Of a stretch of DNA of 64,000 nucleotides, positions 4,671 to 40,654 are shown piece after piece. Numbering within the stretch: the first letter of the stretch is position 1; every line of letters starts with the position of its first letter. This DNA comes from Escherichia phage vB_EcoM_WFbE185. Made by a program: the position numbers and the translations under genes. Location: the sequence record MK373778.1; one strand, 5' to 3'. The notes under the pieces were generated by a model. It was given only the letters and a program-made list of their open reading frames with translations, did no database searches and was not told the DNA's origin.

Positions 4671-6359
4671 TTATGAAACAGTCATTACAGTAAATCGTCC
4701 AACTTTGCTCATTTGCAAATGTTGTCCATAACGTTGAGGGTCATGGTCCCTATGAGAAATAATGAACACGTTAGTATTTTGTAAACTTCCAAGAATGGTA
4801 TCTATAGCCTTAACAGCTTCAGAATCAACTGCCCCATCAAAAACCTCGTCAAGAATCAGAGTGTTGATTTTAACACCAGAGACCTTTTCAGCAATATCTC
4901 GCCATGTAAACAACAACGCGATATCAATGCGTGCTTTTTCACCTTGACTAAATGAAGCATAACTAAAATCTTCACGACCACGTGATTTTATAGATTCATT
5001 GAATTCTTCATCAATAGAAAACACGTAATCAGCTTCCATAATTTTAAGATAATGGTTAATCTGCTTGTTGAACAGAGGCACATATTTTTTAATGATAGCA
5101 CCTTTAATACCAGAATCTTTTAACATATCTGTGATAATACCACGATGGTATTTTTCAAGAACGATATCCGATTTTGTTTTAATGATTTTATCAAGTTCTT
5201 TTTGAAGCAAAGCTATCTCATCGGCATGGTCGATAAATTCTGCTGAGGCTTGCTCTATTGCAGCTTTAACTTTCTTAGCTTTATCAATAGTGGCAATCAT
5301 TGCTTGTTTCTTGGTACGAATATCAGATGCAAGGTCCTGCTTAGTCTTAACATTAGCTCTATATTCATCAACTAGGACACTCAGATTATCTCTGTGACAG
5401 GTAAGTTGCTCGAATGAGTGATTACATTCATGAAGCTTATCGGTAATCTTAGAGACAATAGGATCACCCTGGTGCAACTGTGATGCACAAGTAGGACATG
5501 TACCACCATCATGATACATCTTAATAACTTTGTTATATGAGTCAATTTTAGATTTAATCAAGAATGCTTCTTGTCCGATCTTGTTGAATGCCTCAGTAGG
5601 GTCTTCGTCCAGAACGATATTAAGTAGACGCTCGTTAGCTTCTTCAATTTCTGCTTTTAATGAACGAGCTTCTTTGGCTAGGTCGTCATACATATTCTGT
5701 AGACGAGCTACATTATCACCAGATAATTTCTTTTGACGTTCGATATTCTCGTTATAAATCTTAATTTGTTGGATAACACCATCTTTCTTGGCATCGAGAA
5801 CTTGTCCCTGAGAATTAAGTTCGCGAACTTGAGACTTATTGATTTTATCCATTTCAGCGAGTGTGCCAACTTCTAAAAGGTCTTCGACAAGTTTTCTACG
5901 AGCAGGGGTGCTAAGAGCCATGAAAGGGGTATACCCTGCCGTCCCAAGCACAACGATTTGTTTAAAAGACGCGTATGACATTCCGATGCTACGTTCAAAT
6001 TCTTCTTGGAAGTCACGACTGCTGGCAGATTCATCAAGACGAACACCGTCAACGGAGATTTCGAAAATATTGGGCTTTTGGCCACGTCTAATGAAGTATT
6101 TTTTATCATCGAATTCCATCCAAAGCTCAACTAAGAGCTCTTTCTTGTTCGTGCTATTAATGATTTGTCCTTTCTTAACATCACGAAATGGTTTGCCGAA
6201 AAGTCCAAAAGTGATGGCTTCTAACATCGTAGATTTACCGCCGCCATTTTTACCAGTGATTAATGTCTTTTGGACTTTATCTAATTGGATATCAATAGGA
6301 TTCCCACCTACCGACATGATGTTTTGATAACGAACACGATTTAATTTAAATGATTTCAT
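4671..6359 (-). CDS. 46: Recombination endonuclease subunit gp46 (Rad50/SbcC-like ATPase)
   Basis: 562 aa; Walker A GKNGGGKST; long coiled coil; CPTC zinc hook; D-loop LILDE. Confidence 0.9.
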   Translation of the reverse strand: MKSFKLNRVRYQNIMSVGGNPIDIQLDKVQKTLITGKNGGGKSTMLEAITFGLFGKPFRDVKKGQIINSTNKKELLVELWMEFDDKKYFIRRGQKPNIFEISVDGVRLDESASSRDFQEEFERSIGMSYASFKQIVVLGTAGYTPFMALSTPARRKLVEDLLEVGTLAEMDKINKSQVRELNSQGQVLDAKKDGVIQQIKIYNENIERQKKLSGDNVARLQNMYDDLAKEARSLKAEIEEANERLLNIVLDEDPTEAFNKIGQEAFLIKSKIDSYNKVIKMYHDGGTCPTCASQLHQGDPIVSKITDKLHECNHSFEQLTCHRDNLSVLVDEYRANVKTKQDLASDIRTKKQAMIATIDKAKKVKAAIEQASAEFIDHADEIALLQKELDKIIKTKSDIVLEKYHRGIITDMLKDSGIKGAIIKKYVPLFNKQINHYLKIMEADYVFSIDEEFNESIKSRGREDFSYASFSQGEKARIDIALLFTWRDIAEKVSGVKINTLILDEVFDGAVDSEAVKAIDTILGSLQNTNVFIISHRDHDPQRYGQHLQMSKVGRFTVMTVS

Positions 6360-10865: not shown

Positions 10866-10996
10866 TTTGTGTTCCAGGCCCCATTTTCATCGATGAACTT
10901 AATCCAGTCATTTACAGACCATTTAGTTGTATCACCCTTTGGATTAACATTTAAAGTATATAATCCCTGCTTAAAAAGCATTCGTTTGATATTCAT
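10862..10996 (-). CDS. Small hypothetical protein, about 44 aa
   Basis: ORF track 10862..11089 trimmed to ATG 10996 with SD GAGGAAA. Confidence 0.3.
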   Translation of the reverse strand: MNIKRMLFKQGLYTLNVNPKGDTTKWSVNDWIKFIDENGAWNTK

Positions 10997-11003
10997 AATT
11001 TCC

Positions 11004-11297
11004 TCAACTGTAACGATAACATTCGTTAGCTTTACGTTTGGCTTCAGTATGAGAAGTATTATAATCATACTCTTCTTTACTGTAAACATCTTTTTTCAAC
11101 TTACGAACTTCTTTGCGGAGTTGTCGATTCATTTCGTTCTTGACTTCAGAATCAACGCCTTTCATACGTTTCCATTTATCTGAGCGGAAGATGTTTTCAA
11201 CCATGTCTTTGTGGCTAACACCGTCAGGAGCTTTACGCTTACCAAAATAGTCGTAATCGCGAACTTTCAAATCTTTACGACGATATGTTTTACCCAT
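11004..11297 (-). CDS. Hypothetical basic protein, about 97 aa
   Basis: ORF track 11004..11324 trimmed to ATG 11297; Lys/Arg-rich. Confidence 0.45.
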   Translation of the reverse strand: MGKTYRRKDLKVRDYDYFGKRKAPDGVSHKDMVENIFRSDKWKRMKGVDSEVKNEMNRQLRKEVRKLKKDVYSKEEYDYNTSHTEAKRKANECYRYS

Positions 11298-11304
11298 AAG
11301 TACC

Positions 11305-11553
11305 TCAGAGGTTGATTGATACAATGCGTTTGATAAAATTCACTTCACTTACTGAAAGGTCTTTAAGACCGATTGATTCTAAACGCTGAGTAAGCGTCAA
11401 CATCGGGATATAATCCCAATGAGTTTTATTTGCTTGATAAGTACGAACGCCATTAGCAATTTCAACATACAAATCGGAAATGGTAACGAATACCGGTCGC
11501 TCGTCATTAACTTTAAGGGTTAGAACAACTTTCTTTGAATCTAAACTAATCAT
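11305..11553 (-). CDS. Hypothetical protein, 82 aa
   Basis: ORF track. Confidence 0.5.
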   Translation of the reverse strand: MISLDSKKVVLTLKVNDERPVFVTISDLYVEIANGVRTYQANKTHWDYIPMLTLTQRLESIGLKDLSVSEVNFIKRIVSINL

Positions 11554-11732
11554 GGCTTAATTTCCTTCGCAATTGAACAGAAGATACCACGGTCACAAAG
11601 CATTTCACCAATTTCTGGATATTTGATTGAACGGTACCAAACATCCAGGCTTGAAACTCTGGTTATCTGTACGGCATTACCATTGACAGAATAGTACTGG
11701 TCAACCTTAATTTCTTTATCTTCAATTGTCAT
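11550..11732 (-). CDS. Hypothetical protein, about 60 aa
   Basis: ORF track 11550..11852 trimmed to internal ATG preceded by GAGGAAAATAAA. Confidence 0.4.
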   Translation of the reverse strand: MTIEDKEIKVDQYYSVNGNAVQITRVSSLDVWYRSIKYPEIGEMLCDRGIFCSIAKEIKP

Positions 11733-11870
11733 TTTATTTTCCTCTATAGTAGATGGTTTAATCTTAACACATCTATTGAGGATGTAAACTGTTTTATGAA
11801 AATATTTTTGATTTGAGAGGGGCACAAGGAGATAGTGAAGTGAAGATTCCAATGGATTATATTAGAAATG

Positions 11871-11899
11871 AGATAAAGAAGACCAGGCGGCCCCTGGTC
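11871..11899 (-). terminator. Candidate intrinsic terminator
   Basis: GACCAGG-cggcc-CCTGGTC hairpin followed on minus by TTCTTTATCT. Confidence 0.35.
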
Positions 11900-12220
11900 A
11901 ATCTTCTATGATATCAGAGTCGTATCCTAATGAAATCAAGGACTTTTTAAACTCTGCAATATTCTTTTGTTTCTTATCATTTAAAAATATGACAGGATAA
12001 CGAATATTAAGTGAAGTGAATCCTGCACGTTTAGCAAGAGATACGATTAAAGGACGGTCATATTCAATCTTACCATTATTAGTGAGGACTTTATAAAATG
12101 TATAAGGAGCATTGAGCTCCTTTAAAAGTTTTGTAACAGTATAACATCCTGGACAACGTCCAACTTCTTCAGGGATGCCATAAATTTCAATCTTGTTCTT
12201 TAAGTTCGAGTTTTGTTCCA
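11898..12220 (-). CDS. nrdH: Glutaredoxin-like protein (NrdH-like), start uncertain
   Basis: ORF track 11898..12350; CPGC redox motif after beta-strand KIEIYGIP; upstream part overlaps next ORF, so probable GTG start near 12220. Confidence 0.55.
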
Positions 12221-15626: not shown

Positions 15627-15806
15627 TTAGTAAACGTTATAAAAGTCTCGATGAAAACGTTTATACTGTCGAATCATTCTTTTAGTAGGACGTGTTACCG
15701 AAATGATTGAAGTCCTCATGTTCGGATTGTTTGGAGCCCCAATCATAATAAATTTCCAGGATTTTTGGCCGTTTGTTCTTTCGCCATAAAATAGTTCAGT
15801 TTTCAT
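15627..15806 (-). CDS. Small basic protein, 59 aa (paralogue of 16231..16401)
   Basis: Hand translation MKTELFYGERTNGQKSWKFIMIGAPNNPNMRTSIISVTRPTKRMIRQYKRFHRDFYNVY; below ORF-track cutoff. Confidence 0.4.
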   Translation of the reverse strand: MKTELFYGERTNGQKSWKFIMIGAPNNPNMRTSIISVTRPTKRMIRQYKRFHRDFYNVY

Positions 15807-16230: not shown

Positions 16231-16401
16231 TCAATATTCTCTATAAAAGTTACGATGAGAACGTTTAGCTTTGCGAAGCTGACGTTTAGTAGGACGAACT
16301 GTAAATGGTTGTCCAGAGAAAAAATTCGGATCGGTTTTAATAAGCAAATACCAATCATGCTTGCCATTTTTTAATAAACGGTACAATAATTTAACTTGCA
16401 T
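16231..16401 (-). CDS. Small basic protein, about 56 aa (paralogue of 15627..15806)
   Basis: ORF track 16231..16428; shares C-terminal VRPTKRQLRKAKRSHRNFYREY motif. Confidence 0.4.
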   Translation of the reverse strand: MQVKLLYRLLKNGKHDWYLLIKTDPNFFSGQPFTVRPTKRQLRKAKRSHRNFYREY

Positions 16402-16529
16402 AATAATCTCTTCCCATCTCCATATCAATTAATTCATTTATTGAAGGTTCATCATAACACGTTTCTTCGTCGTTGTAAACTGTTTCGACGTCTGGCTCGA
16501 CTGTCTCCCATCGAGCCGAATACCATGGC

Positions 16530-17201: not shown

Positions 17202-17461
17202 TTAAAATATTCTCGTAGTTGGTCAAATCCACCAATGTGACTTCCGTCAGGAGCAAACACCTGAGGCATAGTCAATCCAACTTGTGATTCACGTCCAAGC
17301 TTAACCAGAAGCTCAGTAATTTTCTCATCATCGAACACACCTTTTTCCGGCATAACATTAATGAATTCGAATGGTTGTTTCTTAACAGTCAGCAATCGTT
17401 TCGCATTATCACAATAAATGCATTTATGAATAGTAGAGTCATACCCGTACACTTTAAACAT
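17198..17461 (-). CDS. nrdC: Thioredoxin/glutaredoxin NrdC
   Basis: ORF track 17198..17476; from MFKVYGYDSTIHKCIYCDNAKRLL matches remembered T4 NrdC; CxxC active site. Confidence 0.85.
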   Translation of the reverse strand: MFKVYGYDSTIHKCIYCDNAKRLLTVKKQPFEFINVMPEKGVFDDEKITELLVKLGRESQVGLTMPQVFAPDGSHIGGFDQLREYFK

Positions 17462-17867
17462 TATTTTTCCTTTCATCGATTAAATATGCAATGCCAAATA
17501 CAATACATGTAATAAAACCTGTGATACAGATAGAAACCAACAATACTGTACCAAAGAACCAAATCAAGTTATCTTTGGTAGTTTGTTTGATATCCATCTC
17601 ACGAATTTCTATAGCTATCGTATCACCTTTATTCAGAAGCGTATAAAACGATGGCGATACACGCCTGTCAAAAACTCGTCCTTGCTCATCTTTATAGACT
17701 GCAATAAATTCTAATTTAGAATATTTTCCTGTAGATTGGCCTGAGATTAATTCCACTACCTCCACAGGAATTACTTTAGTTTCCATGTAAGTATTCTGGC
17801 TGTTCCAAATGAATGGAATAATAGCAAAAACTAAAGCTGTGATAAAACAACGAAGGCTATATCTCAT
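17454..17867 (-). CDS. Membrane protein, 137 aa
   Basis: ORF track; N- and C-terminal hydrophobic segments. Confidence 0.5.
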   Translation of the reverse strand: MRYSLRCFITALVFAIIPFIWNSQNTYMETKVIPVEVVELISGQSTGKYSKLEFIAVYKDEQGRVFDRRVSPSFYTLLNKGDTIAIEIREMDIKQTTKDNLIWFFGTVLLVSICITGFITCIVFGIAYLIDERKNNV

Positions 17868-18172
17868 TATAATGTTCTCTCAAATTTGTGGAAGCATTTA
17901 CGGCATTTCAATTTCAAGTTATCAGTTGTCCAGTTAACCAGTTGGACTTGGATAGTTCCACATTCCGGGCATGGATGTTTTGCTGCCGATTTGGCAGCAT
18001 TTTCACGTCGTTCAACCATTTTCATTATTTCGTTCCATGCCGGAGGAACAAACTCTTCTTCACCGTGGATTTTATCTCGCTGAACAAATTCAATCTTTGA
18101 ACTATCGTCAATAAACTTAACCAAGCCATGATTAGTGCTCATATCAATATCCTCTAAAAGACGTAGTTTCAT
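17867..18172 (-). CDS. Zinc-ribbon protein, 101 aa
   Basis: ORF track; CPECG ... CRKC pair. Confidence 0.5.
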   Translation of the reverse strand: MKLRLLEDIDMSTNHGLVKFIDDSSKIEFVQRDKIHGEEEFVPPAWNEIMKMVERRENAAKSAAKHPCPECGTIQVQLVNWTTDNLKLKCRKCFHKFERTL

Positions 18173-19122
18173 TATAACACCTCAATGGCATTTCGTAAAC
18201 CATCCGCTTTCGCATTCAGAGCTTTTAACGATTTAGTTTGTTCTGCAATCTGGGCTTCGACTTCTTTCAGACGAGATTTGAGATATTCGCGTTCTTCTCT
18301 TAAGTTATCAACTTTTTCTGCTTTAGGCTCTTTAATAGGCTTAGGCTTATACTCGTTAGGGTTCTTCAACTTAATTTGAATGCGAGAACTGTATAACATT
18401 GAACCATTATCTTCGGTTTCATCATACATTTCTACCACGTCCATGATTCTTAACATCATGCGAAGTTTATAAGACAGCGAACGAATGGTTTTATTGTGCT
18501 TCTTAATTTCTTCAGCTTTCATGGTGCCGAGATTACGTGAGTAATAATAAGGAACCTGAATATCAATTGATAATGATGCGGTACCATTACCGGTTGGTTT
18601 GAACACTGCAGTAACCCAATCTTTAGCATGAACTGTATTTGTACGATCATCGCCGCCTGTGAATAATTTACGAGAATGTTTAAAAAGCATATTCACTTGG
18701 TTATTGAATTCACAAGCAAATTTATCAGCAAATTTAGTTTCAGGAATGGTAGATAACCAATCAGCCAAATGAGTCTTTTTAACATCATTAACAATAGTGA
18801 ATTCAACCAAATCGGTTTTAGATGTCACAGATTTAATAAAGCTCGGCTTCATAAAGTTTTTAATGTTATCGCGAGCTACAGTAGAAGATAATAAACGAGA
18901 ACGTTTGAACCATTGAAGCAGTGTCCCTAATGAATGAGAATATGCATTTTGAGTATCTTTACAGATATGATTTTCTTGGCCTATGTATGTACCAAAATCT
19001 CGAAGAATACCACTTACTACATCTCGGTGTGGAACATCAAATCCTAGTGCACCAGAAGCACGTTGGGCATGAACGTTAGCGATAAGACCTGCAAAGTATT
19101 CAATGTAATGTGAACGTGTCAT
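18172..19122 (-). CDS. Hypothetical protein, 316 aa, paralogue family member 1 with C-terminal coiled coil
   Basis: ORF track; own early promoter at 19151-19180. Confidence 0.6.
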   Translation of the reverse strand: MTRSHYIEYFAGLIANVHAQRASGALGFDVPHRDVVSGILRDFGTYIGQENHICKDTQNAYSHSLGTLLQWFKRSRLLSSTVARDNIKNFMKPSFIKSVTSKTDLVEFTIVNDVKKTHLADWLSTIPETKFADKFACEFNNQVNMLFKHSRKLFTGGDDRTNTVHAKDWVTAVFKPTGNGTASLSIDIQVPYYYSRNLGTMKAEEIKKHNKTIRSLSYKLRMMLRIMDVVEMYDETEDNGSMLYSSRIQIKLKNPNEYKPKPIKEPKAEKVDNLREEREYLKSRLKEVEAQIAEQTKSLKALNAKADGLRNAIEVL

Positions 19123-19150
19123 AATATTTTCCTCTCGTTAAGATAGAAAG

Positions 19151-19180
19151 ATTATACTCCAACCATCCTTGGTTGTAAAC
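19151..19180 (-). promoter_or_regulatory. Sigma70-type early promoter
   Basis: Minus reads GTTTACA-spacer-TATAAT; spacer CCAAGGATGG shared with promoters at 20171 and 40617. Confidence 0.55.
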
Positions 19181-19184
19181 TGAT

Positions 19185-20144
19185 TTATGATTTTAACGCA
19201 TTCATTGCGTTAAAAAGTTTAGAATACTGCAACTGGAGATTCGTTACAACACTTTGAGCATCACGAAGCTTAGCTTGTGCTTTGTCAAGTTCAACAGACA
19301 GTTGGTCCATAGTGGCCTTGATTTGATTGTAATGGTAATCTTCGGCCGGAAGAAGGTCATTATAAACATTTAGTTTTACTGCAGACAGTTTGCACACATT
19401 TGGCAAACCTTTAAACATTGATTTAGCCGAAGTAGAATAAGCACTTAGGACTTCGGCTTGTTCAATTGGGGTCCCAGTAAGCGATGATTCAAACAATGCA
19501 TTTTCCTTTTTAAGATTTTGATAGTATTCAGAGTCTTTGTGCCACCATGGCGCAGGAACCTTTTTACCAATAGATACACGTGCCTGGATAGCGATATGGC
19601 CTTTATTCTTGATAGGGTTGATAATATTAAGCTCGCGAGAATAAATTGCTTTAATCTGGTGGATATTATCACCTAACACTTCCAACGCTTGGTGAAATAC
19701 ACGAGCAACGTTATCATTCTTAGGTTTATACGTAAGAGTGAACTCGTTCTCACTGATAACCATGATTTCTAACTTATCGTAAGTATATTTCAAATGTTTC
19801 ATGTTAATTGCTTGAGGACGAATACGAGAAGCAATGGCCATCAGATTGTTAAGGTTATTTCTGAACTGTTTAGCAAAATATTGTCCATAACCGCCAATGC
19901 AAAAATTACGAAGTTTCTGTTTGGCCAATAAACGGCTGAACTCGCCATTTTTAATGAACTCTTTAACGGGTGTGTTAGTAACGCATTCAAATTGAGTAAA
20001 CTTACGAGAATTAATCCCATAATACGAACAGATTTCCTCAATCTCTTCAGGAGTCTTTACAGGCATACGGATAGGATTAGGTCCTGGAGTATATGCGTTC
20101 GAGGTAAATTCTTTGATAAGTTCTCTACGTGTAATAAAAGCCAT
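19185..20144 (-). CDS. Hypothetical protein, 319 aa, paralogue family member 2
   Basis: ORF track; own early promoter at 20171-20200. Confidence 0.6.
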   Translation of the reverse strand: MAFITRRELIKEFTSNAYTPGPNPIRMPVKTPEEIEEICSYYGINSRKFTQFECVTNTPVKEFIKNGEFSRLLAKQKLRNFCIGGYGQYFAKQFRNNLNNLMAIASRIRPQAINMKHLKYTYDKLEIMVISENEFTLTYKPKNDNVARVFHQALEVLGDNIHQIKAIYSRELNIINPIKNKGHIAIQARVSIGKKVPAPWWHKDSEYYQNLKKENALFESSLTGTPIEQAEVLSAYSTSAKSMFKGLPNVCKLSAVKLNVYNDLLPAEDYHYNQIKATMDQLSVELDKAQAKLRDAQSVVTNLQLQYSKLFNAMNALKS

Positions 20145-20170
20145 TTTATATTCCTCATGTTGAAAAATTT

Positions 20171-20200
20171 ATTATACTCCAACCATCCTTGGTTGTACAT
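20171..20200 (-). promoter_or_regulatory. Sigma70-type early promoter
   Basis: Minus reads TGTACA-17-TATAAT; same spacer as 19151. Confidence 0.5.
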
Positions 20201-21195
20201 CATTCCTTAAGAAGTTTTACTACTTGAATAAGATTAGCTCGTTCTGTTTTATTTTTACCGTTTAAGCCTGCTAATCGTGAGATTTCATCGTCAGTCTGCT
20301 GAATAGTTACATTAAGTTCGTTAATCAAAGCTTCAAAGTATTTGATTTGCTCAGCATGTTTTGATTCAAATTTCTGAACTGGAATAACGTCTTGGTTTAG
20401 TTCATCAATAAGGTCTTTAAGAGCATCTTCTTGGTTGATATCATATTCAACTTCTTTTATTTCTTCAACAAGCTCGTCTTTATATCTAACGTCTTTTAGT
20501 CCTGGTGCTGGTCCTGAAATCTCTTCTTTAAGAGTACAAACATACCCAATACGGTATCCAATGCCGTCTCGCTTGATATCAACTTCGTCGATAAATCCAC
20601 AATGTTTAAGACCAGAGCCGATTAGGTCAAAATATCCTTGACGTCGTCCTTCAAACGTTACACGAACTACTAAGACAGTTTTGCCTGCAACCTTTTGAAG
20701 CTCACATTTATAAAAGTCAGTTGAACCTGAATAACTTGGATGAGTTTTAAAGTTCATCTGACGATCTAGGCCCATTTGTAAGCGTGCTGTTACGGCCATA
20801 AAACGTGTTTGGTTCTCGTTAAGATGAGCAACAATCCATTTCAAAGGCATTTTACACTGTTCACGGCCGAACAAATCAGTACGTCCTAGATTACGCAGGA
20901 TGTTGTTAGAGTTAATCATCGACAGAACGTTAAGTTTATTCAGCGCGCTGAAGATTCCATCAGCCATTGATTTTCCATAACCTTTACACGCTTTAATAAG
21001 TGCTCGCGGCAGATTAGTATAGATTTCAGACGGCATATGAAAATCAAATTTACTAGTCAGTAATTGATGAACTTGGATAGCAATTTGTTCATAATTAAGT
21101 GCCCTGCGATCATTATGGTCTTTAAACCATACTTTAATCTGTGAAGCACATAAACCGTTAATTTCATGTTTTACCGCATCAGATGTAATGCTCAT
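20200..21195 (-). CDS. Hypothetical protein, 331 aa, paralogue family member 3
   Basis: ORF track; N-terminal region aligns by eye with 18172..19122. Confidence 0.6.
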   Translation of the reverse strand: MSITSDAVKHEINGLCASQIKVWFKDHNDRRALNYEQIAIQVHQLLTSKFDFHMPSEIYTNLPRALIKACKGYGKSMADGIFSALNKLNVLSMINSNNILRNLGRTDLFGREQCKMPLKWIVAHLNENQTRFMAVTARLQMGLDRQMNFKTHPSYSGSTDFYKCELQKVAGKTVLVVRVTFEGRRQGYFDLIGSGLKHCGFIDEVDIKRDGIGYRIGYVCTLKEEISGPAPGLKDVRYKDELVEEIKEVEYDINQEDALKDLIDELNQDVIPVQKFESKHAEQIKYFEALINELNVTIQQTDDEISRLAGLNGKNKTERANLIQVVKLLKE

Positions 21196-21257
21196 AACTA
21201 TTTCCTCAGATTGAATTGGAACTCAAAACCATTATAACCCGTCCTTGGGTAAAGCGT

Positions 21258-21785
21258 TTATGCGTGAACCGTCTTTAAACGTTCTTCAAATTTCCGAAGA
21301 GTACTAATACGTTCTGCTTTCTGTTTTGTATAGTTTGCAATACGTTCTGAAGTGAGAGCGTATCGTTCGTTTACTGTTTCTTTCATGAAGTCAGGGATTT
21401 CACGAGAAGCTTTAATTTCATCAAACTTATCGAGTACTGCCTGGTCTTCAGCAATTAAATTTTCGTACATCTCGATATCTTTCTTGATGAAGTCGATATC
21501 TTCCTGGGTTACTTTGGATAAACGAGATGCCTTATCCTTTTTGTACTGCTCGTTAGTTTCACGAGACCAGAATAATGTACGTTTTTTGTTAGTGTTTTTG
21601 TAGACTTCCACAATTCCAACTGAATCGATGATAACAATCCAATTCCAGCGAGATTTGAAAATCTGACCTCCGTCCACGGTAATCTCGTTACCATAAGCAA
21701 TGTCATTAAAGAACTTACTTTGTGCTTCAGATTTAAATTTACCGTCGTTATAATTTACCAGGTTGAAAATATCTTTAGCGTTCAT
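21258..21785 (-). CDS. Hypothetical protein, 175 aa
   Basis: ORF track; promoter at 21824-21850. Confidence 0.55.
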   Translation of the reverse strand: MNAKDIFNLVNYNDGKFKSEAQSKFFNDIAYGNEITVDGGQIFKSRWNWIVIIDSVGIVEVYKNTNKKRTLFWSRETNEQYKKDKASRLSKVTQEDIDFIKKDIEMYENLIAEDQAVLDKFDEIKASREIPDFMKETVNERYALTSERIANYTKQKAERISTLRKFEERLKTVHA

Positions 21786-21823
21786 GTTTTACCTCCAGTA
21801 GTTGATAGGTCTATAATAACATA

Positions 21824-21850
21824 ACCATAGACCTTGTAAACAACTAAAAG
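21824..21850 (-). promoter_or_regulatory. Sigma70-type early promoter
   Basis: TTTACA / TATTAT; AGGTCTAT/ATAGACCT inverted repeat flanks -10. Confidence 0.45.
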
Positions 21851-22131
21851 AAACTTTTTTCGGTATTTTTTCCACTGAACCAAACAGACTTCGGGATTTT
21901 TTGTAATTTTTCAGATTTAAGTTTCTCTTCCTGTTCTTTCTTATATACACCCTTGTCGTACTGGAGCATCTCTATGGCATTCTTTTGCAAACGATCTAAG
22001 GTAATTAAGGCTTTAGTTTTTCCTTTCAAGGAAGAGTCCTGGCGAACCTCCTCGCTATATTGCATTGTAGAACTAACCATACGATGAGCATAGAGTTCGA
22101 CTGCGGCTTTAATTTTTTGCATAAAATCCAT
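21844..22131 (-). CDS. Hypothetical protein, 95 aa
   Basis: ORF track; overlaps another candidate ORF 22026..22232 in a different frame. Confidence 0.4.
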   Translation of the reverse strand: MDFMQKIKAAVELYAHRMVSSTMQYSEEVRQDSSLKGKTKALITLDRLQKNAIEMLQYDKGVYKKEQEEKLKSEKLQKIPKSVWFSGKNTEKSFF

Positions 22132-23262: not shown

Positions 23263-23289
23263 ATTTACTCATTTCGTTTCGATAGGTCT

Positions 23290-23318
23290 ATAATAACATG
23301 TTTAAAGCAAAAGTAAAC
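23290..23318 (-). promoter_or_regulatory. Sigma70-type early promoter
   Basis: GTTTAC-17-TATTAT; TGCTTTA motif in spacer. Confidence 0.5.
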
Positions 23319-23320
23319 AA

Positions 23321-23539
23321 TTATTTGCGACGAGATTTTTTGGTAAGAGGTTGAAAGAACACTGCTTTACCGGCAGGAGTCAAAGTGACTCGTAATGCAT
23401 TACCGATTCCCAAGGATGCTTTAACCAGACCTTTAGATTTCAGTTCACCGAATGCTTGACGTTGGTCTGCATTACGAGTGTTAACCATAAGACCTTTATC
23501 ACCAGCTTCACGAATCATTTCTAGCATTTTGGTTTTCAT
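23321..23539 (-). CDS. Small basic protein, about 72 aa
   Basis: ORF track 23321..23599 trimmed to ATG 23539 with SD AGAGGAG. Confidence 0.45.
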   Translation of the reverse strand: MKTKMLEMIREAGDKGLMVNTRNADQRQAFGELKSKGLVKASLGIGNALRVTLTPAGKAVFFQPLTKKSRRK

Positions 23540-23570
23540 TTTGTTTTCTCCTCTTGTTTTGATAGGTCCT

Positions 23571-23599
23571 ATAATAACATATCCTAAAAGCATGTACAC
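23571..23599 (-). promoter_or_regulatory. Sigma70-type early promoter
   Basis: TGTACA-17-TATTAT. Confidence 0.5.
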
Positions 23600-23619
23600 T
23601 ACTTTTTAAAAATATTTTG

Positions 23620-40586: not shown

Positions 40587-40616
40587 TTTGTTTACTCCTC
40601 TGTAGTTGATAAGTCT

Positions 40617-40645
40617 ATAGTATCACCATCCTTGGTGCTTGTACA
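40617..40645 (-). promoter_or_regulatory. Sigma70-type early promoter
   Basis: TGTACA-17-TACTAT; CCAAGGATGG spacer. Confidence 0.5.
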
Positions 40646-40654
40646 TCGTTATTT

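Follow-up and report, generated by a model that had tools for sequence, protein, structure and literature searches.

Three adjacent open reading frames (ORFs) of similar length, here called A, B and C, occupy positions 18172 to 21195 of a 64,000-nucleotide (nt) stretch of Escherichia phage vB_EcoM_WFbE185 (MK373778.1), referred to below as the window. The locus raises the question of whether these ORFs descend from a common ancestor and what function they may share. The original prediction, made from the sequence alone, described them as tandem paralogues of about 320 amino acids (aa), each with its own early promoter, of a host-takeover or anti-defence type and under diversifying selection. 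All three ORFs were found, with products of 316, 319 and 331 aa. Comparisons of family profiles show them to be, by all appearances, very old tandem duplicates of one family of about 330 aa that occurs in T4-like phages only, and B belongs to the same Pfam family as the T4 anti-Dsr1 protein NrdC.5.

Identity of the three genes

Between positions 17800 and 21900, the window shares 98-99% DNA identity (98.8%) with many genomes of Mosigvirus, the RB69/mar005P1-like T4-type coliphages, and the region was assigned to this genus on that basis. All genes of the region, A, B and C included, are carried on the minus strand, and the surroundings consist of the standard T4 block of nrdD, endonuclease VII, pin, nrdC and nrdC.1 to nrdC.11. 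ORFs A, B and C are known genes, annotated in RB69 as nrdC.3, nrdC.5 and nrdC.6, respectively.

ORF A shares 56% identity with T4 NrdC.3 (E 1e-121) and has a weak match to T4 NrdC.4 (E 4.6e-5). The hidden Markov model (HMM) of phrog_1435, which represents NrdC.3 and NrdC.4, aligns residues 1-316 of A with model positions 1-333 of 334 (E 2.6e-106), and PF26897 is recorded on every close relative. Moreover, the stop codon of A overlaps the start of the NrdC.2 homologue, which places it in the orthologous position upstream of nrdC.2. ORF B matches the Pfam model DUF7235 with 407.3 bits (E 6.2e-122; gathering score 30 bits), residues 15-318 covering model positions 1-307 of 307, and T4 NrdC.5 itself reaches 420.6 bits with this model. 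The direct comparison of B with T4 NrdC.5 yields 25% identity (E 6e-11), so that B and nrdC.5, the anti-Dsr1 gene of T4, are distant alleles. ORF C is 29% identical to T4 NrdC.6 (E 4e-19), and its residues 27-330 are 32-33% identical to the 295-aa NrdC.6 of other Tequatroviruses; the phrog_2257 HMM covers it completely (residues 1-331, model 1-303 of 303; E 9e-128). In a Pfam HMM search, DUF7235 matched neither A nor C at E-values up to 1. Since A and C are connected with B by profile-profile comparison only, they are remote paralogues that fall outside the Pfam family as currently defined.

A thioredoxin identity was also considered for A, B and C and rejected, as no thioredoxin or glutaredoxin family of Pfam matched them; the label likely derives from the locus names nrdC.x. 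In GenBank records of relatives (e.g., OP870147, MN850590 and OR352948), the whole nrdC.x block, including A, B and C, is widely labelled 'thioredoxin', and one gene is labelled 'Mur ligase domain-containing'. Neither label is supported by family searches, and both look like propagated annotation errors derived from locus names. A structural-protein identity was ruled out in the same way by the lack of a family match in Pfam and PHROG. Sequence searches of the PDB, NCBIfam and PADLOC returned nothing meaningful for the three proteins.

Common ancestry of A, B and C

The common ancestry of the three proteins is visible at the level of family profiles. Pairwise BLASTP among A, B and C found nothing significant, the best E-values being 0.53, 3.0 and 0.22. 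The window, T4, eight IMG/VR loci and database matches supplied the sequences for family alignments, namely F1 (NrdC.3 and NrdC.4, with A), F2 (NrdC.5, with B) and F3 (the family of C). Word-index homologue searches contributed close relatives only (33, 19 and 4 proteins). At this depth, hhalign already related F1 to F2 with 90% probability (E 1.4e-6). The corresponding A-C and B-C comparisons (E 0.058 and 0.039) did not differ from the controls, for which reversed profiles and unrelated neighbour families were used (E 0.04-0.64), and carried no weight in the argument.

A joint-profile search of 1.84 billion representative sequences returned only 13 proteins. Four of these, of about 340 aa (P0061, P0063, P0064 and P0066), were new and came from Kanagawavirus and Mosugukvirus phages; they constitute a bridging family, F4, equivalent to phrog_26858. 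In profile-profile comparison, F4 is related to F3 with 98.6% probability (E 7e-16), to F2 with 96.7% (E 4e-10) and to F1 with 82-87% (E 4e-6 to 1e-5). When F3 and F4 were merged with C as the master sequence, the A family aligned at 94% (E 1.2e-7; A66-163 with C79-148) and the B family at 97% (E 5.5e-11), the latter over nearly the full length (B52-319 with C75-331). Thus, the profiles enriched with F4 render the A-C and B-C similarities significant, which without the bridging family remain at background. The three alignments are mutually consistent, with A135, B90 and C121 equivalent within the motif F.xxFNxNxxxLxAxAxRL, and they span the non-coiled N-terminal and middle domains rather than the tail alone.

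Single-model searches lead to the same grouping. The F4 HMM matches window C (9.5e-14), window B (1.6e-8) and T4 NrdC.4 (4e-4), and the F4 proteins in turn match phrog_2257 (3e-15), phrog_2351 (7e-7) and DUF7235 (30.2 bits). In addition, T4 NrdC.4, T4 NrdC.5 and window B weakly match phrog_26858. Based on these comparisons, the remote paralogy of B and C is firm, and the membership of A is probable. The predicted paralogy is therefore borne out, although at the level of remote profile-profile homology only, and the proteins prove to be related to one another with no match to structural proteins. The weak but consistent N-terminal similarity that had been read by eye is absent from pairwise BLASTP and emerges from the enriched family profiles. 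Of the motif pairings proposed there, DNIKNF with NNILRNL was recovered by hhalign (A66-92 with C79-105), whereas SALGTLL with SALNKL is offset by a few residues, and A in fact reads SHSLGTLL.

Predicted architecture

The heptad-rich C-terminal regions of the original prediction were recovered for each ORF, more weakly in C. In a heptad scan, the signal is confined to the C-terminal 45-50 residues (267-316 in A, 267-319 in B and, less strongly, 281-310 in C), and a joint alignment of the three families keeps these tails in register to the very C-terminus.

An AlphaFold2 (AF2) model of C computed with five sequences was unusable (predicted local distance difference test, pLDDT, 49.7), and the prediction was repeated with a superfamily alignment of 14 sequences (pLDDT 71.9; predicted template modelling score 0.58). 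The resulting model contains a confident helical N-domain (residues 1-140; pLDDT 81-93), a beta-hairpin/helix/beta element (residues 160-220; pLDDT 58-76), a disordered linker (residues 209-277) and a single long helix (residues 281-330; pLDDT about 80). No known fold was found. In a search of the BFVD with this model, the matches with E-values of 1e-3 or lower, and most of those with E-values up to about 0.04, were uncharacterised proteins of T4-like phages of about 210-380 aa; among them were members of the C and F4 families as well as proteins from phages of Acinetobacter, Klebsiella and Aeromonas. Entries of the A and B families did not appear in this listing, for which the moderately confident model of C was the only query. 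Together, the alignments and the model suggest that family members begin with a helical domain bearing the motifs FS..A...L.NFG and F...N.N...LA..ARL..G..R...FK. This domain would be followed by a small beta-hairpin/helix/beta-hairpin domain and a variable disordered linker, and the last ~50 aa, up to the C-terminus itself, would form an amphipathic helix (...L..A...LK).

Promoter-like sites

The promoter-like sites upstream of A and B share an exact 27-nt core, TACAACCAAGGATGGTTGGAGTATAAT, for which 0.01 matches are expected by chance. Its copies at 19151-19177 and 20171-20197 lie 1020 bp apart and bracket ORF B. The spacer of the A site contains the hairpin CAACCA-AGGA-TGGTTG, and the same position is annotated 'promoter' in phage NBG1. 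The claim that each ORF follows its own early promoter holds for A and B. In contrast, C is preceded by a middle-type, MotA-box-like site, which overlaps the NrdC.8 stop codon and fits the MotA consensus apart from a single mismatch, C for T ahead of GCTT. The middle promoter consensus of T4 and RB69 is (a/t)3TGCTTtA-N11-13-TataAT, and MotA is present in RB69 (PMC1524935). Given this fit, the site upstream of C may be used as a MotA-type promoter. The core CCAAGGAYGG is common to the C site and to the A and B sites. In T4, elements containing the CCA-AGGA-TGG hairpin are also found upstream of nrdC.3, nrdC.4 and nrdC.7, and the orthologue of the MotA-type element of C lies upstream of nrdC.7. 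The presence of the same hairpin elements in T4 indicates orthologous promoters, and duplication probably affected them together with the genes.

Near-identical promoters had been predicted at 19151, 20171 and 21824, which is correct for the first two. The third site (21840-21813) lies upstream of the NrdC.8 homologue, not of ORF C, and belongs to another repeat family. This second family, GTTTAC...ATGTTATTATAG, occurs on the minus strand at 21811-21860, 23288-23337 and 23569-23618, where it precedes NrdC.8, NrdC.10 and the ORF 23321..23599, and is distinct from the A/B repeat. Elsewhere in the window, a further early-promoter-like site at about 40600-40650 (TGTACA...TACTAT) carries the spacer hairpin CACCA-AGGA-TGGTG, with the same AGGA loop, at 40624-40637 on the minus strand. 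Hairpins of this kind in promoter spacers were found at only three places in the 64-kb window, namely the A, B and 40624-40637 sites.

The arrangement resembles the promoter-early stem-loop (PeSL) cassettes, by which modules are shuffled in the genomes of T4-type phages (Arbiol, 2010, PMC2839356; Comeau, 2014, PMC4122927). As in PeSLs, near-consensus early promoters (T4-type consensus TTTACW-N17-TAYWAT; PMC4122927) are repeated in a hyperplastic region, where they bracket the variable ORF B; a natural deletion, in phage AV118, has its junction inside the repeat. A stem-loop precedes the ORF A promoter. The segment containing this stem-loop (19145-19225, minus strand) folds with -18.3 kcal/mol (z -3.3), and none of 200 shuffled sequences folded as well; together with the ORF A promoter it may form a PeSL-like composite. 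Unlike in PeSLs, the region upstream of the ORF B promoter has no significant stem-loop (z -0.07), and the best-conserved hairpin, CCA-AGGA-TGG, lies inside the promoter spacer and not upstream of the promoter.

Copy number and turnover of ORF B

The number of family members varies among T4-like phages, being 1, 2, 3 or 4. Kanagawavirus PEi20 and Mosugukvirus PM2 possess a single member just upstream of nrdC.2, overlapping its start. Two copies are present in the Mosigviruses AV118 and F27, three in the window and in the Dhakavirus-like loci L010 and L011, and four in T4. Copy number and synteny suggest that the single-copy state is ancestral and that three to four copies arose in coliphages.

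In AV118, the sequence corresponding to window positions 20171-21400 is joined to that of 18145-19177 through a single hybrid 27-nt repeat, and exactly ORF B is absent. F27 has the same 55% coverage pattern. Among Mosigvirus records, about 20 of about 150 contain A and C without B, an estimate from uncurated record counts. Hence, recombination between the 27-nt promoter cores removes or adds exactly ORF B.

In phage moha (L015), an extra ORF of 66 aa at 5617-5817, between the B and C homologues, represents a cassette-sized difference in the same intergenic slot. Of an A-like gene in ACG-C40 (NC_019399; 47515-47652) and of a C-like gene in Pinarejo (PP925831; 50021-50155), only the last ~45 codons are left, unannotated in both cases; the two fragments seem to derive from family members that were otherwise deleted. 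In the IMG/VR locus L005 (IMGVR_UViG_2974742932_000001; 10948-11980), the NrdC.4 homologue is broken up into one ORF of 193 aa and another of 158 aa, apparently by a frameshift or as a pseudogene. The NrdC.6 of the T4 reference has 275 aa and a divergent tail, and other Tequatroviruses possess an intact 295-aa protein. The family helix FRLSGLSSKAKSEREKLIKIVDLLKS* is still encoded in another frame of the nrdC.6-nrdC.5 'intergenic' region of T4 (L003, NC_000866; ~5770-5853), and a frameshift, either in the T4 reference sequence or in the strain itself, seems to account for the tail.

Selection

Diversifying selection had been expected, and gene-wide comparison gave no sign of it. The ratio of nonsynonymous to synonymous divergence (dN/dS) was calculated gene by gene, by the Nei-Gojobori method, between the window and four relatives from Mosigvirus. 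Values of 0.06-0.26 were obtained for A, B and C and are indicative of purifying selection on each of them. The synonymous divergence of adjacent genes differs by up to ten-fold, as in the comparison with phage moha (dS 0.056 for A and 0.634 for B). This contrast points to whole-allele exchange rather than diversification by point mutation, and the diversity of the locus reflects the exchange, gain and loss of whole cassettes.

Possible function

The function of the family is approached through T4 NrdC.5. A T4 clone with deletions fails to infect ECOR17, which becomes susceptible again once dsr1 is deleted (Srikant et al., 2022, eLife, PMC9391042). Plasmid-expressed nrdC.5, then an 'uncharacterised early gene', restores the infection of MG1655 carrying dsr1 (PMC9391042). 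The tetratricopeptide repeat (TPR) sensor of Dsr1 is reported to recognise major capsid proteins, and the same sensor domain is found in Avs7 and in proteins with other effectors (2026 preprint, PMC12803255). The literature searched contained no later study of NrdC.3, NrdC.4, NrdC.6 or the mechanism of NrdC.5.

ORF B resembles T4 NrdC.5 in Pfam family, genomic slot, length class and C-terminal helix, and A and C are its remote paralogues. The gene order of T4, nrdC.6-nrdC.5-(nrdC.4)-nrdC.3, is that of C-B-A in the window, which unlike T4 has no NrdC.4 copy; in addition, C retains the C-terminal helix that is missing from T4 reference NrdC.6. The anti-Dsr1 activity was demonstrated for the T4 protein, whereas B is 25% identical to it and is known here from its sequence. 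The proposed anti-defence or host-takeover family is supported by experiment for one member family (T4 nrdC.5; PMC9391042). An anti-defence role for B is plausible, and paralogy with the NrdC.5 family suggests a similar role for A and C.

Beyond homology, we infer each step of the following model. A and B would probably be made early and C early to middle in infection, all three being dispensable. Each paralogue would most likely act as an oligomeric inhibitor or decoy, a mechanism suggested by the only tested member, T4 NrdC.5, which neutralises the SIR2 NADase defence Dsr1. The N-terminal and middle domains would bind the host immune protein, and the C-terminal helix would oligomerise the inhibitor. 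B may act on Dsr1-like systems, and A and C would likewise inhibit host targets. DSAD1, the inhibitor of DSR2 from an SPbeta-like phage, is reported to block a SIR2 NADase defence by binding it; its likeness to the family is one of analogy only. Overall, the explanation that unites these observations is that nrdC.3, nrdC.5 and nrdC.6 are diverged paralogues, that B is turned over through promoter repeats and that the proteins are probable early oligomeric inhibitors of host immunity. This explanation is held with moderate confidence. A bolder version, which seems unlikely, regards the NrdC.3/4/5/6 array as radiating early antagonists of immune sensors, each directed at another sensor of Dsr1's family. 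They would form homo- or hetero-oligomers through their helices and swap specificities as promoter-bounded cassettes, so that the array would be the phage counterpart of a defence island.

Several points weigh against the favoured explanation. The link of A to the family is the weakest, at 82-94% probability over only 70-130 aligned columns. Promoter use and timing of A, B and C were deduced from consensus matches only, and oligomerisation through the C-terminal helix is a prediction. The middle domain of the AF2 model is only moderately confident (pLDDT 58-76), and the alignment behind it included rows of the B family. Moreover, the sole member with an experimental phenotype, T4 NrdC.5, is remote from B in sequence. 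One alternative is that the three proteins, although alike in size, are ORFans without kinship, with a convergent coiled-coil tail and compositional similarity only. Coiled coils often yield spurious matches, and both the pairwise BLASTP comparisons and the first profile comparisons involving C were indeed null. Nevertheless, the later alignments are significant and mutually consistent across domains that are not coiled, reversed and unrelated controls scored E 0.04 or worse, and PHROG and Pfam models provide independent links between the families. All members also occupy one syntenic slot, with a copy number of 1 to 4. This reading is very improbable and already largely refuted.

The most substantial competitor proposes a role in host takeover or phage physiology unrelated to immunity, for instance in host transcription, the nucleoid or nucleotide metabolism, with the anti-Dsr1 effect being indirect or lineage-specific. 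The proteins might then work with the translationally coupled zinc-ribbon protein NrdC.2, whose start codon is overlapped by a family member in PEi20, PM2, T4, HX01 and the window. The zinc-ribbon matches of NrdC.2 are weak, none reaching Pfam curated cut-offs, and a TFIIS_C match was found in one of six genomes (E 0.021; PMC1524935). A nucleotide-metabolism neighbourhood (nrdD and nrdC) and purifying selection, which suits a conserved cellular target, also agree with such a role, and no published account explains how NrdC.5 counters Dsr1. The genes are dispensable, however, having been lost both in nature and in the laboratory, and the only known phenotype is specific to defence. The family is also extremely narrow (13 matches among 1.84 billion representatives) and diverges very fast between genera, as is typical of accessory host-range genes. 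A purely physiological role is accordingly rated as somewhat unlikely. It is more improbable still that only B, the NrdC.5-type member, functions in anti-defence, with A and C carried in a hyperplastic region as copies that are redundant or in decay. Family members do decay, as illustrated by the split NrdC.4 of L005, the loss of the C-terminal helix from T4 reference NrdC.6 and the remnants in ACG-C40 and Pinarejo. However, A and C are intact, possess their own promoter-like sites and ribosome-binding sites, are under purifying selection (dN/dS as above) and occur in 653 (A) and 741 (C) phage records. In nature, the copy missing from some Mosigviruses is B itself.

Neighbouring genes

The trio is also flanked by homologues of NrdC.9 and NrdC.10, in addition to the genes listed in Table 1. 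The NrdC.7-like gene is located between nrdC and nrdC.2 in the window and between nrdC.8 and nrdC.6 in T4, a local gene relocation between genera. Farther away, two small minus-strand ORFs (15627-15806, 59 aa; 16231-16428, 65 aa) flank the pin homologue, and both encode the C-terminal motif RPTKR..R..KR.HR.FY..Y. They contain a 55-nt repeat with 76% identity (15638-15692 and 16242-16296) and may be small duplicated genes.

Table 1. Positions in the window of ORFs A, B and C, their predicted helices, regulatory-like sites and flanking genes.
Feature	Coordinates	Strand	Description
NrdC.7-like membrane protein	17454..17867	-	Flanking gene
NrdC.2 homologue	17867..18172	-	Flanks ORF A
ORF A	18172..19122	-	316 aa; T4 NrdC.3 orthologue; phrog_1435; precomputed Pfam PF26897
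C-terminal heptad helix of A	18175..18324	-	Residues 267-316, end ...GLRNAIEVL; heptad scan and joint alignment
Early (sigma-70-type) promoter-like site upstream of A	19151..19179	-	TTTACA-N17-TATAAT
ORF B	19185..20144	-	319 aa; NrdC.5-type; Pfam DUF7235 (PF23882); phrog_2351
C-terminal heptad helix of B	19188..19346	-	Residues 267-319, end ...KLFNAMNALKS; aligns with C helix (hhalign)
Stem-loop, 10 bp	19191..19215	-	UUUUAACGCA-AUGAA-UGCGUUAAAA; within the final codons of ORF B, directly before the A promoter
Early promoter-like site upstream of B	20171..20199	-	TGTACA-N17-TATAAT
ORF C	20200..21195	-	331 aa; NrdC.6-type; phrog_2257; precomputed Pfam PF26899
C-terminal helix of C	20203..20355	-	Residues 281-331, end ...NLIQVVKLLKE; AF2 and heptad scan
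Middle (MotA-box) promoter-like site upstream of C	21231..21259	-	AAACGCTTTA-N13-TATAAT; related core CCAAGGACGG
NrdC.8 homologue	21258..21785	-	175 aa; flanking gene

Significance

In the literature searched, neither the view of the nrdC.3-6 block as one diverged tandem family with a single-copy ancestor nor the exact promoter-repeat deletion of an NrdC.5-type gene in natural isolates was found stated. No new kind of system is shown by these results; instead, three uncharacterised ORFs become testable anti-defence candidates. The loss of ORF B at the 27-nt promoter repeat is a clean natural case of promoter-mediated cassette turnover in a Mosigvirus, and natural isogenic-like pairs with and without ORF B exist for host-range comparison. 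In addition, the analysis separates the family's conserved core from its variable parts, which is useful for mapping binding surfaces. Few T4 accessory genes have been shown to counter a defence system, and nrdC.5 is one of them. If the paralogy is true, nrdC.3, nrdC.4 and nrdC.6, together with their Mosigvirus counterparts, would become concrete anti-defence candidates, present in hundreds of therapeutic-type coliphages.

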